The translations under genes were made by a program, and so were the position numbers. From the NCBI GenBank assembly GCA_034226945.1, contig CP120454.1, positions 1,116,001 through 1,180,000 of the forward strand: 64,000 bases of DNA, in the 5' to 3' direction. How positions within the stretch are numbered: the first letter of the stretch is position 1; every line of letters starts with the position of its first letter. The notes under the pieces were generated by a model that saw only the letters and a list, made by a program, of their open reading frames with translations, was not told where the DNA came from and searched no databases. The DNA is from Picochlorum sp. SENEW3. Lineage: Eukaryota. This document shows, piece after piece, positions 1 to 50,018 of the stretch.

Positions 1-192
1 AGAGATCGAAATCAAAAGCTCTTGCCTGATAATTATTTGCTACATTTTTCACCATCTACATTAGAAATGAAACAACCTTGAAAAGCAATTGCTCTTAGTA
101 CTCCGGATTCGGAATTGTTTCAGAGAGAAGACATGTTCAATGACATGCCCTGATTGACGCACCCAATCATTAAGTACACGAGCCATCTGCAT

Positions 193-1274
193 ATGAGAAT
201 CGCAGATATATATGAAAAAGGTCGCGTACTAGGTACGGGGACTTTCGGTGAGGTTCTTCTGGCGACGCATAAGCAGACTGGAGAGACTGTTGCGATCAAG
301 AAGATTCGCATAGATGATAAGAAACAGGTGCGATTTATCACTAATTCTGCGGATCCAACTGGTACTGACACTCGGCGAATGGGCAGGGTATCAACGTCAC
401 AGCTCTAAGAGAGGTCAAGTATTTGAGAGAACTTCACCATCCAAATATTGTCACACTCAAGGATGTCCTCTCCCTCAAAAGGGGCATTGCCCTTGTGTTT
501 GAATACATGGACACGGATCTAGAGAATTTGATCAAAGATAGATCTCTTGTTCTCTCTGCCGCGGATATAAAGGCGTACATGCTTGCGATGCTTCGTGCCC
601 TGAAACACTGCCATGAGAAATGGGTTGTTCATAGGGATATCAAGCCAAATAACTTTCTCATCGGTCGGGATGGCAGTGTCAAACTGACGGATTTCGGTTT
701 ATCTAGGATTTATGGATCCCCAGAAAGACGATATACGAATCAAGTATTTGCGAGGTGGTATCGACCTCCTGAATTGCTGTATGGGTCAACATGTTATGGG
801 CCTGGCGTAGATGTCTGGGCATTAGGCTGCGTGTTTGCAGAATTGCTTCTTAGAAAACCATGGTTTGTAGGGGAGTCTGATGTTGAGGTCTTGTCAAAGA
901 TTTTCAGTGCGCTTGGAACCCCGAAAGATAAGGATTGGGCAGGATTAAAGTGTTTGCCTGGATTTGTGGCCTTTCGAGAGCGGGATGCACCACCCCTGAA
1001 ATCCATATTTCCCGGGGTTGAAAACGAAGCGTTAGAGTTACTGGCAAGGATGGTATGTCTTGATCCACGTCGACGAATCACGGCAGCCGATGCGCTGTCA
1101 CATTCGTACTTCAAGGTCAAACCTGCACCAACAGAGCCAGAAAAGCTCCCCAAACCGCACATCCTTGAGGAACACGTGCAGGAAAGGAAACGCAGTATGG
1201 CCTCCGAGGAAGACTCGGAACCAAGCGCGAAAATGGCAAAACTAGATAAGGATCTTGTAAAATCATTATTCTAA
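193..1274 (+). CDS. CDKD: Cyclin-dependent kinase D (CDK7/CAK type), 2 exons
   Basis: GTGTFG loop in exon 1 (193-327). GT-AG intron 328-386 joins in frame to GINVTALRE (CDKD signature), then HRDIKPNN, DFG and YTNQVFARWYRPPE. Confidence 0.9.
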
Positions 1275-42649: not shown

Positions 42650-43214
42650 GATGGAACATAACGGACGAATACGCTTATGGGTCCTTTTGAACAATGCCAA
42701 CGCAGTTTGACTTTCTGCACCCCATGTGGATTACACCATGGCCAACAATCTATGCGGTGCACGATTTTGATAGAAACAATAAAGCATTAATTGCGCTGCC
42801 ATGCACCCTGCGATCCAGTGAAGAGATGACTTATAACGTTCTAAACGTTTGAATTCCAACACGGTGTTGAACGGTCGGTCAATTGATTTTGCAATGGGTC
42901 TGGTCGATCGATGGGAATGGCCCATCAGCAGGATTCGATAGGTCTCGGAGACGACCAGCCCATACACTTGGGAGCCATACAGAGAAGTGGCCTAGAATAA
43001 GGCCCTCTGCTCGTGGGGTGCCAAAACAAGACCCGGAAGAGAAACACGTGTTTATTTAATTTATTTTGCTCAATATTATCTTTATTTAAACTTGAAATGA
43101 TGTATTATCACGACCTAACAACCACGCGTTGGTGTTGGCGCACGTGTGGCGGTAGTAGAGTTCACACCTGGGTTGATCTTCCACTGCAGACCAAGACCTG
43201 TGGACCCTTGAAGC

Positions 43215-44483
43215 ATGATGAGCGAAACCGATCAAGATGGAAATACACACAGGATTGTCCAGCGTGATTACCACCGTCCGAAACCTGTCACCAAGACTTT
43301 GAAGCACCTGAGACGAGTTGCCAAATCTGCTGAGCACACGTTGGGAAGGAAGATGTCCACACTTGAAGGTGGGCAGTATGTGCTGTTGGTCAAAGCTCTC
43401 AGGCAGAACAGGAGCGGTCAAGTGCATGGTACGTGCATTTTTTCGTTACTTTGAGGTTCGTTCATGTTAGTTCATGAAAGAGTTCTCTTTGCTGCAGAGG
43501 TTGTGGAGATTGTGGGCTCCCCAGGTTTGAAGGAGTCTTTTGAAGCACACCAAAGTGATGTGTTGAATGGCATTCCAGCAAACAAGGACGATACCGATGC
43601 ACCAATCGGCGAGGCCTGTGATCCGTTCCACAAAGGCGCTATGGTCGCTGAAATACTGTCTGATGTAGAAGATCGAGATCCAGGCAGGGACACCAACACT
43701 TCCAGTCCAGATGCGCCAGTACTAAAAGGAGGTCCAAGCATGACAAGGCTGCCACGGCCAGATGCAGTCGTACCGCCAGAGGACTCACAAGATTCCATTC
43801 TCGATATTGGGGGTTTTGGGGATGACGTAGATGAGGTCACTCTGATGGACTGGACTGCCCAGCAGGGTGGGAATGTGCCTCCAGTATCCCAAGCAGCTTG
43901 TGATTCTGCCCTCAAACAACCACGCGTTGCCTGCGAGGGCGTTGCTCAGAAAGATACACCTGGCAACGAAGATTCGTGGAGATCACTGGTGCATTCCGAC
44001 GACCCATTCCTGTCGCTGATCCCATGCAAAATACCACCTCTGGCTTCAGCGCTACAACAATGTCAGCACAACCACCTGAAAGCATACAAGCGCCTAGGTC
44101 TCCCTGTCTCTGGTACGAGTGACTTGACTGTCGGTTTGTTTCTTCTGTAAAGCTGTGAGGGTGTCAATGTCGACATGAGTAAATATACTGTGTGTATGTA
44201 TTGTGCAGATGACTTGAAAGGATGGTTTGAAACTGGGGTTGGCCATACCGTATGGAGCACCGTGCATGCACATTATCCTCAGGTGCTTGATCCCACTTTG
44301 GTTGCACGAGAAAGAGTGCGTAATGCAAAAGGTGCATCAACAGAGAGAAGTGAACTGGAATGGCATTCCAAGAGAGGAGTGAATTCTCCAAGTCTCCCCA
44401 GAGTGCACATCAAAGCATCCAAAGCGAGACAGAGACAGGCATCTTTGACCAAGTCTTTGAGAGATTCCGTGCTATATGTGTAG
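43215..44483 (+). CDS. Orphan 3-exon gene (~367 aa) associated with the element
   Basis: GT-AG introns 43429-43497 and 44113-44208, both phase 1, join three ORF-track pieces into one frame. Confidence 0.65.
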
Positions 44484-44798
44484 TATGGCTTATCCTCAGT
44501 ACCAGTAATCAGATGGAAGCGAAAGATAAACCAGTCTGGTGCAGGCTCCTTCTCGTTAAGCCTTGGCTGTTCTTTTACATATAACTTGTGGAATGCAGAA
44601 TTGATGTGCGTGTTTTTTCATCGGATGTATTCATGCAGAATGCAATCATCGATCTTAGTATATGCAATTTTTTTTTTCTTTTTCACTCTATTTGGAGCTA
44701 TTACTCTAACCAAGCACCAGAACGTGGTTGGTCTCTTTCTGATTGTCCCAGAAATCAGTGCTCTTTTGACAGTCCATCCACCTCATGTGTACAATCTT

Positions 44799-47294
44799 TT
44801 ACAAAAAGTCATCATTTGTTGATTGTCGGAGCTTGATTCCCACCCAAACTCGACACTTAATCCCATTGACACGTCTGGACGCAGTCTTAACACATCTTCC
44901 TCGTGCAGGATCATGGAATTGCCTGAGTTTGGATCGCATCTTCGTGAGAGAGAACTGTAGTCCCAGTGTCTTCCAAGCTGACTCAACGTCGGCAGATGTC
45001 GAAATGTCAGACTCGTCGCCAGTAATTTGAAAGATGCTGTCAATAACAGAGTCGATGTCCTGGCCATCTTCCTGAATCATCAAATCAGCTTCATTCTGGA
45101 TGCTTTCCGGAAGGTCAGGAAGCTCCCTGGAATAGTAACGAAGCAAAAGATGCCACACGATGTTTCCCATTTCTTCCGTCTCCAAGCTTTGCTTCAAAGA
45201 GGGATCTCCTTCTCTCCAAAATGATGGCCGTTCTTCCTCTGCCATTGAGGTGAAAGTTCTCTTGTCCACATATTTGGCCTTGCAATGGAACACCACACAA
45301 GTCTCCAAGGCATCCTTGGCTGAAACTTCCGACATTTCATTGGCATTGTTCACCAGGGTACATTGAGGTATGATACTGAATGGCATGCCATGGGGAACCC
45401 TGAGACGAATAGGGTCACCTCCTGACACAACTTGCTTGATCAGGTTTGCATCCAGCTTGTGCCCTTTCCCGATGCTTTCATTCGAAAACGCAAGACGACT
45501 CCACCGCAGCCCATACACCCATTTCAGTTCATATTCTGCATCACTTGCATGGGGAGTATCTCTGAATGCTTTGATATTGTACGTGCTGACCTACTCGGGA
45601 CCCAAGGCAACTCGGAGCGCTTTTTCAATCACTCCTTTGCCAGAGTTCCGGTCACCCAAGATGACGAACCATCTCTTATCTTCTGTGTGTCCAGCAACCG
45701 CTCTTGCAAGAATCTTTAATAGCGCTCTACCCTGCTCTTCGCCCAGCGTATCGAAAAACAGAGTCTTTTCAACATGGTCCAGCTTGTCTTCTGGTGGGGC
45801 TTGCTCAGGATACTCTCGTGGAACAGATACGGTGGTCATATCTTGGGGACCCACCTCACGAAAAGTCCCCATTCCGAAATCATATACGCCATTCTTCCAA
45901 AAGACTTTCTGTCGGCAGCCCTGGCCTAGACGGGCCGGGAAATTTGGATCGTCCTGGGCTTCATAGACGCTGATGATGTTTCTCATCCCATGTGCATTAT
46001 GGGAGTATTTCTTGCCGTCCAGTCTCAGGTCGATTCTGCGGCAATACTGCTGAATATTGTATGCGAAATTGTCTTTTCCTGTTTGCCACTTGCCTGTTGT
46101 GGGAGATTTTGAGTATAACTGTCCTTCAGCTCTGTAAGCAATTTCCTCCCCTGCAACCTCTTTGATGACCTGACAAGCATGCACATCGGATTCAATCGAG
46201 CGCAGCACGCATGTTACCTGCAGATCAGAAAGGTTGACTTGTCTGTCCATTTCCTTGAGAGCGAACGCCACCTTCCACGTCGTTTTCTCCTGGACCCAAG
46301 AGGACAATGCCTCCAGCCATGGTTGTTCGATATCCGTGATCTGTTGTTGTGGAACCATCAGCCCGTCAAAGCAGAGAACCACTTCATCTGCTGAAATTCC
46401 CTGTTCAATCAAAAAGGAGACGCAACAGTGGAGGATCTGATTCTCCATTTCCTGCAAGACACAGATTACAAGCCTGAATTTCACCCTATGGCTCACATTG
46501 TCCTCATTCATATCTCCTGCTCCATGTTCTGTGCTATAGATGACGTTCAGCAAGTGTTTAAACTCATCGCGACCCGATGTTATATCAGCCGCATTCTTGA
46601 ACTCCTTCTGAAGATCTCGAAGCCAGGGTAACTGTTCCCAAGCAACATCCGGAATCTTGCTTGATCCACCATACATCAGTTGTATGATGAACAACTTCAC
46701 ATCATCCCGTTCAAATCCGTGCTGTTTCCCTTCGTTGAATAAGTCACCTCGAGAATGTACGACTCGATACAACGTTTGAAAATCGTGCCCACGGCCCCAC
46801 CTTTCCAACAGCTGCAGCAAGAGGGTGGGGTGAGCGTTGACAACGTCAATGTCATGATACAGATCATGGCACAGGGTATGTCGAACCCACTTTGGGGTGG
46901 TCTGGAGACTGACACCATTCTTAGCATACAGCCTTCCACCGGGAATATTATTCTGAGATCGAAGGCGGCTTTCGCCATATTTCACGGGATAGAGGCAGGT
47001 GCCATCCTGTTGTTCCTCACAGCCAAGCATCATTGCTTCCAGCAGATGAGGAATGCTGTAATCCTGCCAATTATTATCCGCGTTTTCCAGATTTTGACAC
47101 CTGGTGTCCGATTTTTTCTTGTACATACTTTCCAAATGATCATAGTTTGCATATATTTTCCGCAGACGGTCCAGGTGAACCCGCTCCCTGAATGTCTTTT
47201 GGGCCATGCTTCCATGTAGAGGCATCGGACCCACATGGCCATTAACCGGTCGGATGCAACGTTTCTTTCCTGGGCGCGCGCTCTGTGTCATCAT
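44799..47294 (-). pseudogene. TV-Pol (PolA-like primase/polymerase) fused to D5-like SF3 helicase, with one in-frame TAG at 45591-45593
   Basis: Polymerase: GRLY, motif A DIDVVNAHPTLL, motif B RDDVKLFIIQLMYGG, motif C LCFDGLMV. Helicase: FWKNGVYDF, Walker A GDRNSGKG, Walker B LAFSNE, motif C NNANE, and a winged-helix-like end RVWVGIKL. The two ORF-track pieces are in the same frame. Confidence 0.85.
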
Positions 47295-47727
47295 ATGATG
47301 TAGTATGCATACTCTCCTCCATTGGTGATCATCATGGAGATTTGTACACCCTTAAATGACCTTAGATTCGGACAGCAGTGTCTGCTCATGGTGGGAAACG
47401 GGTACGGGACCGTTGTGCTGGTCTGCAACTTAGAGGTCTCACTGTCGAGATGAACCGGGGCAACTATCAATAGTTTCACCATATATGACTATTATGTATA
47501 TATATGAACTGGTTATTATCCTTTACCTCGTTGAATAGCAACATCTAGCGGTAACACGCGACGCCGCCGACTTCTCTGTCACATCTTTCGCCTTCGCACA
47601 CCACTATGTTTTATGCTTTCCCTATATGGGGAACGGATATGAGTTAGTTTAAAAGATTTTTCACATAGACTGCGAGAATATTTGGCGAAGGGTTCCTGTC
47701 ACCGGGCGGGGTGGTTGGCAACTACCG

Positions 47728-47992
47728 GTGGAACAGTGGAACACTGGAACACCTCTCAAACTTTTTTTTCTGGGAGATTGCATCTTTCAGTAACATCTCC
47801 TGGCCATAGATGAAAACATGCAAAAACTACTGTTCCACTGTTCCACTGTACCCAAATTTGTACTATTCTTTCCATTTTACCCTATAAATGCCTCACTTAC
47901 ACGTCAAAACCGAAATTTGTAGACCAAGGGGGAAATATACTACTGTTCCACTAGTGTTCCACTAGTGTTCCACTAGTGTTCCGGTGTTCCAT
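47728..47992. repeat. Iteron-like TGTTCCAC repeats in inverted and direct orientation
   Basis: GTGGAACA-GTGGAACA-CTGGAACA at 47728-47751; TGTTCCAC x2 plus TGTACCCA at 47831-47854; TGTTCCACTAG x3 plus TGTTCCGG and TGTTCCAT at 47944-47992. Confidence 0.9.
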
Positions 47993-48226
47993 AGTATCTC
48001 CCAGAATCATTCGACGCCGATTCCCCATATCTCTTTCACCCAATAACTTGTACTCAATAGGTTGCAGCAATTGAGGGAAAAAAAAGCAAGGTTAACTTGT
48101 AACGGTGGTTGCCTCTCTGATCTCTACCATATCCCCACAACTGACGTGAGACCGCGGTAGTCACTCAATGATCCCAAGAGCGGCACATGCGTAAAATTTC
48201 CAAAACTTTTTTCTGAGCCTCTAGGT

Positions 48227-49429
48227 ATGAGAAAAACACAAGTATACGTAGAAGATCCATGGGATGTCGACTCCTATGCTACCAAGCTCAAGACACTCTA
48301 CAGAGCCATGCATGGCCTCAAGAGGACCTCCCCTGTGGACAATGCCAAGGTACGACAATATTCGGAATGGTTGGTCCGCAAGGTCGATGAACTATATTCG
48401 TATCTGAGAGAAAAGTACACAAACTTGTCTGTGCTGTCGTCCATGATGCTCCCGGTAGCATCAGCACTCAGGCAGGAACTCGGGGAGGATCATGCCATCA
48501 CTACCAAATGGAGAAATGAGGCCACGGAACTGCGATACCGTGCTGACGAGGAAGCCTCCCATAACGTCCAAGATGAAGACTTTAAAACGTACCAAGAGAT
48601 ATGCAATCGCCGAGACTCGATCAGGGAACAGCTGGACAAGGAGCCATCACATACCATCCAGTACTGGCAGTGGTTTGCCCTGTGCTTGTACACCATGCAG
48701 CCACCGCTCCGAGCAGATTGGGCGACGCTGTCCATCGTTGATAGCGTTGACAAGGCATCTACGGGTCAGAACCATCTTGTGCTCACATCGGACAAGGCTG
48801 TCATTCCGATCCAGCAGGACAAGGTGTCACACAGGAAGGGTGGGGCCCACATTCCTGTTACTGATGAGCTCCACTCTGTGCTGTTGGGCTCCATACGCCA
48901 ATTCCCGCGATCCGTAGTCGTCCCATATACGTCTAAGTCCTCTCAAAATCCACTCCATCGATCCTATAGCCCAGACAAGCACATATCCAAGGTGAACTTG
49001 TCCAAACTGCTGAGTCAAGCCATGGCATCACCACAGGACAACACACCATGGCCACGTCCAATCCAAGGTCTCCGTAAAGCTCACTCTACCCTTGTCATGT
49101 CATCAAACGCATCCTATCATACCATAAAGCAAGTAGCAGACGCCCAACGACATTCAGTGTCGACTATGCTGTGTCACTACAACGCTGTATCACCTTGTTG
49201 TTCTGTTGAGGACGATACCAAGGCCAGCACTCCTGAGAAGAGGATTGCATCAGCCATGCAGCAAACTGGTCTCTGTCATTCTAACGTTATTATTATGACA
49301 CATTACGGCGAATCTCATAGGAATGGATCTCCTGCATGGACTCTCTACTGCAGTAATCCAGACCTGCAAGAACCTGCAGAACAGGGCCTGGCCATCATTC
49401 AGGAGGCATGCTCATCAAGAGGCCAATGA
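48227..49429 (+). CDS. Tyrosine recombinase/integrase (PLV/virophage-like)
   Basis: LYTMQPPLRADW (catalytic R), QDKV (K), QGLRKAH (R) and AQRHS..MLCHY (H, Y); open reading frame intact. Confidence 0.85.
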   Translation: MRKTQVYVEDPWDVDSYATKLKTLYRAMHGLKRTSPVDNAKVRQYSEWLVRKVDELYSYLREKYTNLSVLSSMMLPVASALRQELGEDHAITTKWRNEATELRYRADEEASHNVQDEDFKTYQEICNRRDSIREQLDKEPSHTIQYWQWFALCLYTMQPPLRADWATLSIVDSVDKASTGQNHLVLTSDKAVIPIQQDKVSHRKGGAHIPVTDELHSVLLGSIRQFPRSVVVPYTSKSSQNPLHRSYSPDKHISKVNLSKLLSQAMASPQDNTPWPRPIQGLRKAHSTLVMSSNASYHTIKQVADAQRHSVSTMLCHYNAVSPCCSVEDDTKASTPEKRIASAMQQTGLCHSNVIIMTHYGESHRNGSPAWTLYCSNPDLQEPAEQGLAIIQEACSSRGQ

Positions 49430-50018
49430 ATGTACTGTCCTCCAAGAAGAAATCAGCGCTATTATATATTTTCTAAACAGTAGTACTATGAATCGATATC
49501 AAGTCTTGCTCTGATTGACACTTGTCCTGAGCACAACAGAGAAGAGAGGAAACATGGGGTACATTATCGAGCTTTGACGCTACTCATATTTACATTCCAG
49601 GTATAAACATCGAGTAAAGTAATGAGAGATCACTCATAGTTGGCAACCATACCGTAGCGGTCAAACAGGAGACCACTATAGATGCAACAACATGCATGTG
49701 CCAATGCATGTGCAACGCCATAGAACGATGATGTACGCCACACGAGCGTCTCTTTATTTAGAATTCTTCTTTCTTGAATGCAACGCTACGCTTCATAATC
49801 ACGAGAAAAATCCATGCTAACAACAATGCATGCTCAACACCTCAGCTGATACATCACCCAGAGCAGAAAAGTCAACCATGCTGGCTCACACTCATCTCCA
49901 CAGACCTGTCCATCAGCCTCTGCTCTGATGCCCTCCCTGCCATTTTTTCGATAAAATTTATATATAAATTTTACTTGGTCCATTCAGTAGCCGAGAGGCA
50001 GCATGACTCCATCTCAAC

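Follow-up and report, generated by a model that had tools for sequence, protein, structure and literature searches.

Origins of replication built from short repeats (iterons) are already known from bacteria, and two satellite systems come closest to the locus described here. In the Staphylococcus aureus pathogenicity islands (SaPIs), the origin carries 6-12 penta- or hexameric iterons, opposed around an AT-rich centre and bound by a C-terminal winged helix (PMC9371898). In phage P4, the type 1 repeats of ori1 and crr are octamers in both orientations with a spacing of 10-11 bp (GenBank X51522 annotation), and the alpha protein has the order primase, superfamily 3 (SF3) helicase, winged helix (PMC2777425). 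Here we analyse a window of 64,000 nucleotides from Picochlorum sp. SENEW3 (contig CP120454.1, positions 1,116,001 to 1,180,000), a stretch of compact eukaryotic DNA containing a mobile element with divergent genes for a primase-helicase and a tyrosine recombinase (YR), the close homologues of the latter being from Picochlorum species (green algae). Between these two genes lies an array of TGTTCC repeats. Judging from sequence, structure models and analogy with the bacterial systems, this array is probably the cis-acting replication origin of the element, of the self-loading P4/SaPI type and read by the winged helix of the adjoining protein.

This reading is based on an anatomy that fits both the SaPI origin and the domain order of P4 alpha. 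As in SaPIs, short iterons, at least two per side and in opposite directions, stand beside a primase-SF3 helicase with a C-terminal winged helix. Unlike SaPIs, the host is a eukaryotic nucleus, the primase is of the TV-Pol type, there is no known helper phage, the binding is predicted, the array is upstream of the gene rather than directly downstream, and its centre is only modestly A+T-rich. The arrangement of the repeats and the primase-SF3-winged helix order are shared with P4, which differs by its DnaG-type primase and two separate cis regions, against a Pol A-like primase and a single region here. The P4 octamer TGTTCACC, as mentioned in the original prediction and confirmed by the GenBank annotation, equals the local octamer TGTTCCAC at 6 of 8 positions, which may be chance. 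The nearest described architecture is the SaPI origin as much as that of P4.

The array spans 265 bp (47728-47992) and contains ten exact TGTTCC hexamers, seven of them extending to the full octamer TGTTCCAC. Three are reverse (starting at 47730, 47738 and 47746) and seven forward (47831, 47839, 47944, 47955, 47966, 47977 and 47985), with start-to-start distances of 8, 8, 85, 8, 105, 11, 11, 11 and 8 bp; Tandem Repeats Finder reports an 11-mer in 4.0 copies. The original prediction, made from the letters alone, had placed about 11 copies here. Its three reverse units at 47728-47751 are all exact; of its three forward units with an 8-bp period at 47831-47854, two are exact and the third, at 47847, is a degenerate TGTACC; its five forward units at 47944-47992 are present, but four of them rather than three follow the 11-bp period. 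No other two-strand hexamer cluster in the window equals the array (10 copies per 300 bp; runner-up, 5), and the best hexamer cluster in block-wise dinucleotide shuffles of the window (n=20) reached 4-6 copies. The array is therefore real and well above chance expectation. With ten exact units in a 3 + 7 arrangement, it shows the features of a P4/SaPI-type origin, namely 6-12 short iterons with at least two per orientation.

The adjoining SF3 helicase with a C-terminal winged helix is present, as judged on the structure model of P0026, a natural homologue with 89% identity (mean pLDDT 83); the gene of the window carries an in-frame stop, of which homologues from other samples are free. Residues 20-350 of the model show a Pol A fold (Z 10-13.5), and the model matches vaccinia D5 (Z 28.2) and SaPI5 PriRep (Z 24.0). 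The D5-type helicase and winged-helix-like end proposed in the original prediction are both recovered: residues 739-824 match RFX5 (8zjr_M; Z 8.0, root-mean-square deviation 3.1, 79 of 82 residues), a Z of 8 being middling by itself and a language-model search concurring. Indeed, the first ESM Atlas matches of this domain are Pox_D5 / RFX clusters (0.94-0.95); Pfam did not recognise the winged helix, and a PDB sequence search reached the helicase core only. TV-Pol proteins are characterised by a Pol A-type palm with two aspartates, a hairpin arginine, an RxxxK motif and a D5-like helicase fusion (PMC2579912). Judged from its motifs (R120, D149, R195/K199 and D309 in P0026) and its modelled fold, the protein family is TV-Pol, with all these features present.

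To see whether the array belongs to the element, its distribution and conservation in the genome were assessed. The single octamer is not enriched (700 occurrences versus 767 for the reversed control). Two tandem units occur 21 times versus 2 in the control, and 18 of the 21 lie inside four element copies, so that the enrichment anticipated in the original prediction holds for the tandem form only. Two copies, at C3:555-560k and C6:748-753k, have no helicase but retain the array and a full-length YR gene. There, a conserved island around the array is 79-80% identical, against 53-56% for its flanks and a random baseline of 51-55%. The C3 copy preserves every one of the 60 hexamer bases, its other positions show 32 mismatches in 187 aligned, and the island segments are 76-92% conserved versus 70% for the start of the YR gene; in the C6 copy, 56 hexamer bases are identical, none is mismatched and 4 are gapped. 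At the metagenome locus L138, the position of the array and its 11-bp period are unchanged and the core has become TGTTAC in four units. By these alignments the array is part of the element and under selection, also where the helicase has been lost, and the motif is kept in homologous elements, as had been foreseen.

The helicase-less copies carry three opposed arrays in series, of TACCAC-type, AGTTACTT and TGTTCC units (L025 6800-5150, that is C3:557.1-558.8k, and L023 6900-5190, that is C6:750.2-751.9k). All three occurrences of the tandem TACCAC-type pattern (control, 0) and all seven of the tandem AGTTACTT pattern (control, 5) fall in these two copies. A replicase for the TACCAC-type array was not found in the alga. 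At the virophage locus L114, a CTACCA array adjoins the TV-Pol gene.

Metagenome loci with this YR indicate which protein the motif follows. Seven were found, three of which (L139, L143 and L144) have no usable upstream DNA. At L140, the YR is 72% identical and the divergent gene (2-943, minus strand) encodes the N-terminus of an ~820-residue primase-helicase of the archaeo-eukaryotic primase (AEP) type, with DxD and zinc motifs read from an alignment and no similarity to P0026. The intergenic array there consists of AGTTACTT units, three forward and three reverse, with a 9-bp period and 89 bp apart. Since L140 pairs a closely related YR with an unrelated replicase and another array, the TGTTCC motif appears to track the replicase rather than the YR, which is the covariation that the original prediction had looked for. 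L141 and L142, with YRs 68-69% identical, have no TGTTCC array. The proteins P0046-P0049 represent this second, unrelated AEP-zinc-SF3 family (~820 aa) paired with the same YR family. Two queries did not find the AEP-type replicase in the Picochlorum genome, so the AGTTACTT array is there without a known helper; a search of the viral contigs with P0046 also returned nothing. At L141, positions 700-1100 upstream of the YR hold a frame resembling a retrotransposon aspartic protease (DSGA motif, by eye).

A survey of viral TV-Pol loci was then used for comparison. The viral collection contained 167 TV-Pol relatives, of which the best 80 were used, giving 60 groups at 70% identity; for each locus the top-scoring two-strand repeat cluster was taken and counted as adjacent if it lay at most 750 bp outside the TV-Pol gene. 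It was adjacent in 29 of 60 loci, versus 7.1 expected for uniform placement and 20.2 for placement on non-coding DNA only (p 0.01), and in 16 of the 23 loci scoring at least 9 (expected 7.5, p 2e-4); for other, non-adjacent open reading frames (ORFs) the comparison gave 3/82. Shuffled loci (n=30) reached a maximum score of 7.9, while the Picochlorum array scores 12.8-13.7 and, as a positive control, crr and ori rank first and second in P4 (12.3 and 10.1). Each element bears its own motif. Motif likeness correlates weakly with helicase likeness (Mantel rho 0.27, 11 of 5000 permutations, 19 elements). Sputnik-type capsid domains were found in 7 of the 12 loci whose ORFs were scanned. The gene-adjacent opposed clusters of viral TV-Pol loci are, on this sequence evidence, candidate virophage origins. 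Sixteen loci (L061, L062, L064, L074, L086, L093, L097, L100, L102, L106, L107, L109, L114, L120, L129 and L131) have element-specific opposed clusters next to the gene, often ~85-115 bp apart around an A/T tract. One candidate companion motif, AAACTTTT, lay next to 2 of 16 arrays versus 0.6 expected, and the idea was dropped.

The virophage locus L064 has the hexamer of the algal array: nine TGTTCC units lie 438 bp upstream of its TV-Pol gene, its helicase ranks second of the 60 in similarity, and at least four such units in a flank occur at only 2 of the 60 loci. This common motif may be due to chance or convergence, because no comparable array was found at L058, the closest helicase relative, or at L060, the sister of L064. 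A quick tree with weak deep support gave no special sisterhood of L064 with the algal proteins. Scanning of the viral contigs for the 11-bp tandem gave 25 loci; tblastn with the helicase and YR queries matched none of them.

Taken together, opposed hexamer clusters 85-105 bp apart stand beside a primase-helicase that, according to sequence and models, ends in an RFX-like winged helix. By analogy with P4 and SaPIs, a hexameric protein would attach through its winged helices to the TGTTCC units, with several docking points offered by the 8- and 11-bp repeats; the DNA between the opposed clusters would then open, the SF3 ring would load itself and the TV-Pol domain would prime synthesis. The YR could use its own sites, such as the right-end 8-6-8 palindrome, for excision or integration, and the element might amplify as a self-priming replicon. 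Replicase and origin may move as one exchangeable cassette beside the YR, and helicase-less copies would retain the TGTTCC origin and two others for copying in trans. The checks proposed with the original prediction that could be made by computation all came out in favour of an origin, and we infer from sequences and models that it probably is one. A resemblance of the core to the RFX X-box half-site found no confirmation in a literature search.

Several observations weigh against this reading. The A+T enrichment of the spacers is modest: the tracts described as A/T-rich in the original prediction do exceed host DNA outside long ORFs (62% and 65% versus 57%), but this detail is weaker than stated there. 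Of host non-coding 85-mers, 20% are at or above 62% A+T and 6% at or above 66%. An open helicase gene was not found in the genome, whose only three helicase matches are at C2 and C6:739-740k, the second copy lacking the 5' half and being broken elsewhere. Since the in-frame stop bars a full protein from the window copy, the array there can act only in trans, unless the stop is read through; a TAG read-through code received no support (TAG closes 3 of 22 host ORFs) and was discarded. Given that neither an open helicase gene nor an AEP-type helper was found, the arrays may be relics in this genome. The replicase swap is seen at one locus, L140, which also holds one isolated GGAACA...TGTTCC pair. 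In the viral survey, 31 of 60 loci have their top cluster elsewhere than next to the gene, two of the 19 Mantel elements (L062 and L120) were added by hand, and covariation does not equal binding, because neighbouring genes and sites are inherited jointly. The missing arrays at L058 and L060 count here as well; furthermore, the clusters of L064 converge while those of Picochlorum diverge, and a related YR (E 3.9e-5) is encoded at L064 as well. A right-end-to-left-end joint was absent among the 15 joints listed, out of 18, in four contig sets, although contigs cannot show absence. Finally, for a related protein of African swine fever virus, DNA binding by the winged helix is called unclear by the authors (PMC10516667).

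Could the units instead have no part in initiation and act as operators or enhancers of two divergent promoters, occupied by a host transcription factor or, in autoregulation, by the winged helix? The array does lie between divergent starts, 435 bp from the helicase ATG and 236 bp from the YR start, eukaryotic enhancers often carry clustered sites in both orientations, and the L064 array is likewise upstream of its gene. This explanation is nevertheless unlikely, since 8 of the 16 strong gene-adjacent viral clusters lie directly downstream of the helicase stop, as in SaPIs, and not at a promoter, the helicase-less copies retain the array and even add two others, and host genes show no enrichment of the motif. 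We regard it as quite improbable that the units serve as accessory (arm-type) or core sites of the YR. They adjoin its gene as direct and inverted repeats, like the arm repeats of P4 attP, both helicase-less copies with the array keep a full-length YR, and the inverted repeats of Polinton-like viruses (PLVs) have been proposed to serve YR and primase-helicase alike (PMC11296320). However, 4.7 kb and 2.0 kb separate the array from the ends of the element, the YR of L140 goes with a different array and those of L141 and L142 with no TGTTCC array, and separate candidate sites accompany the YR everywhere. The modelled fold of the YR is of the Cre type, and no arm-binding domain was noticed, in the absence of a dedicated test. 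Six further YR places in the genome are without an array; three begin at or near the 5' end of the YR, preceded by unrelated DNA, and the other three are truncated within it, so they are uninformative on this point.

Two further explanations concern the DNA itself. Clusters 1 and 2 might form a hairpin or cruciform recognised by the primase on single-stranded DNA. The strand folds better than 100 of 100 shuffles, at z -3.3, and the fold pairs clusters 1 and 2 with each other, but any inverted repeats yield such a score, the five-unit cluster is left unpartnered, unit numbers differ between copies without compensation, and the 11-bp period suits helical phasing on duplex DNA; such a signal is very improbable. 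That the element carries the array as a neutral minisatellite seems scarcely credible. Unit numbers do differ between copies, as by slippage, and one unrelated three-unit run exists at C3:607853; against this stand the two orientations and fixed cluster spacing, zero hexamer substitutions versus ~17% in the spacers, and the persistence of the array in an island whose flanks are unrelated.

With an origin as the preferred explanation, the element can be compared with described mobile elements. It shares with the 'end module' of PLVs and virophages a TVpol-S3H fusion and a YR (PMC11296320), and with algal PLVs the swapping of replicase genes between relatives (PMC4642659, PMC9356565), and by analogy it reads as a free-standing PLV 'end module'. 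It differs in that no capsid, packaging ATPase or terminal inverted repeats were detected, in its length of 7 kb versus ~18-28 kb, and in its internal iteron array as candidate origin where long inverted repeats are proposed for PLVs (PMC11296320). Less than 2 kb is left for further genes, so a capsid set would not fit; for this reason, and as there are no terminal inverted repeats, it is not classed as a PLV. The capsid search covered the element ORFs tested, without a match, and included no genome-wide capsid-profile search. Inverted repeats of at least 20 nt between the element ends were not found, and the two ends are unlike each other. The bacterial TV-Pol replicative transposons also combine TV-Pol and an integrase in a small element with proposed self-priming, but are known from bacteria, a plastid and viruses, and no description of an origin was found for them, whereas here the element is nuclear and has non-autonomous derivatives (PMC2579912). 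As a eukaryotic YR DNA element without terminal inverted repeats it resembles Cryptons, and its left end, CCATA, is complementary to the CryptonS terminus TATGG; in contrast, PMC3212892 never uses the word helicase, and the YR is structurally closest to giant-virus proteins. Crypton-type terminal direct repeats of 4-6 bp were not seen by eye in two copies with both ends, the right breakpoint being uncertain. The element is, provisionally, not assigned to the Cryptons.

It is possible, if somewhat short of probable, that these elements are a new family: capsid-less, self-priming YR transposons of green algae with interchangeable replicase-origin cassettes (TV-Pol/TGTTCC, AEP/AGTTACTT and another with TACCAC). 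In such a family, non-autonomous members would stack the three origins so as to use any helper at hand, and many virophages would have the same origin design, making virophage origins readable from sequence. The open-access literature searched yielded no eukaryotic capsid-less use, no stacking of three arrays and no gene-adjacent arrays of virophages; Repbase, subscription papers or supplements may describe the family. In the literature searched, the replication start of TV-Pol elements, virophages and PLVs exists as a hypothesis only. This locus offers a short, precise origin candidate together with natural controls (three motifs, two unrelated replicases and one YR family), which makes a binding test simple. 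If the proposal is true, a bacterial-satellite origin design operates in a eukaryotic nucleus, origin stacking is a new trick of non-autonomous elements, and origins become predictable for dozens of virophage contigs.

Table 1. Coordinates of the element, its genes and its candidate origin within the window
Feature	Position	Strand	Remarks
Whole element	42975..49973		~7.0 kb; ends defined by other genomic copies, the right one approximately; lacks terminal inverted repeats and a detected capsid gene
Left end	42975..43005		CCATACAGAGAAGT then GGCCT-N6-AGGCC, spacer differing between copies; sharp homology boundary at 4 other genomic places
Gene of unknown function, probably spliced	43215..44483	+	present in helicase-less copies too; splicing suggested solely by GT/AG signals
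TV-Pol (Pol A fold) primase + D5/SF3 helicase + winged helix	44799..47294	-	831 codons; one in-frame stop at 45591-45593
C-terminal RFX-like winged helix, predicted iteron reader	44820..45077	-	coordinates converted from the numbering of homologue P0026
Conserved island, candidate origin	47709..47991		clusters with 79- and 89-bp spacers; 79-80% identity to C3 and C6 copies
Iteron cluster 1	47728..47751	-	three TGTTCC(AC/AG), 8-bp period, oriented toward helicase gene; 92% identity in two diverged helicase-less copies
Iteron cluster 2	47831..47854	+	two TGTTCCAC and one degenerate TGTACC, 8-bp period
Iteron cluster 3	47944..47992	+	five units, periods 11, 11, 11, 8; same position and 11-bp period at L138, core TGTTAC
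TGCGTAAAATTTCCAAAA(C/T)TTT motif	48188..48212		immediately precedes the YR start; candidate operator or promoter element for the YR, separate from the iterons
Tyrosine recombinase	48227..49429	+	400 aa, open; R162, K199, R283, H309, Y318
Right end, candidate YR core site	49952..49973		perfect 22-bp palindrome TAAAATTT-ATATAT-AAATTTTA (8-6-8)

By its modelled fold and its catalytic residues the product of the second divergent gene is a tyrosine recombinase: the model is Cre-like (Foldseek, Cre, E 6.9e-6), and the first His position is Q here and H in some homologues. Its best viral matches are giant-virus proteins and integrases, the structure search also returning virophage-type YRs, and 912 relatives were found at E <= 0.001 among cluster representatives. 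Pfam did not recognise it, and an alignment search in the viral contigs gave nothing. Homology of most YR copies starts at the motif that precedes the gene, which occurs 5 times in the genome, always at YR copies (control, 0). Sites of such recombinases consist of two inverted arms around 6-8 bp (PMC3212892), and the right-end palindrome with its variable spacer is in line with this design; at L141 and L142 its arms are retained and the spacer is ATGCAT. In two copies (right ends of L023 and L031), extra ATATATAAATTT units follow the palindrome, as though repeated recombination had duplicated the site.

Pieces of the probably spliced gene that were tested had no Pfam, PHROG or Atlas match. Rfam and tRNA searches were negative, and a bacterial promoter scan, a method unsuited to a eukaryotic host, stayed at chance level. 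A perfect 10-bp inverted pair, TTCTGGGAGA / TCTCCCAGAA at 47768-47777 and 47997-48006, flanks the forward clusters; its right half is absent in two diverged copies. The three-unit run mentioned above (L056 4853-4877, C3:607853-607874) consists of tandem TGTTCCAC units flanked by two imperfect direct repeats. A 319-aa ORF of unknown function lies downstream of the run, and broken ORFs nearby resemble transposase genes by eye; by BLAST the run is outside the element family. In contig depth summed over four runs, the first part of the probably spliced gene (~43300-43570) and the YR half lie far above the helicase, consistent with many helicase-less copies. Element copies are mostly on one contig, C6 (~210k, 231k, 587k, 618k, 663k and 737-753k), amid nested repeats, which suggests an insertion hot spot.
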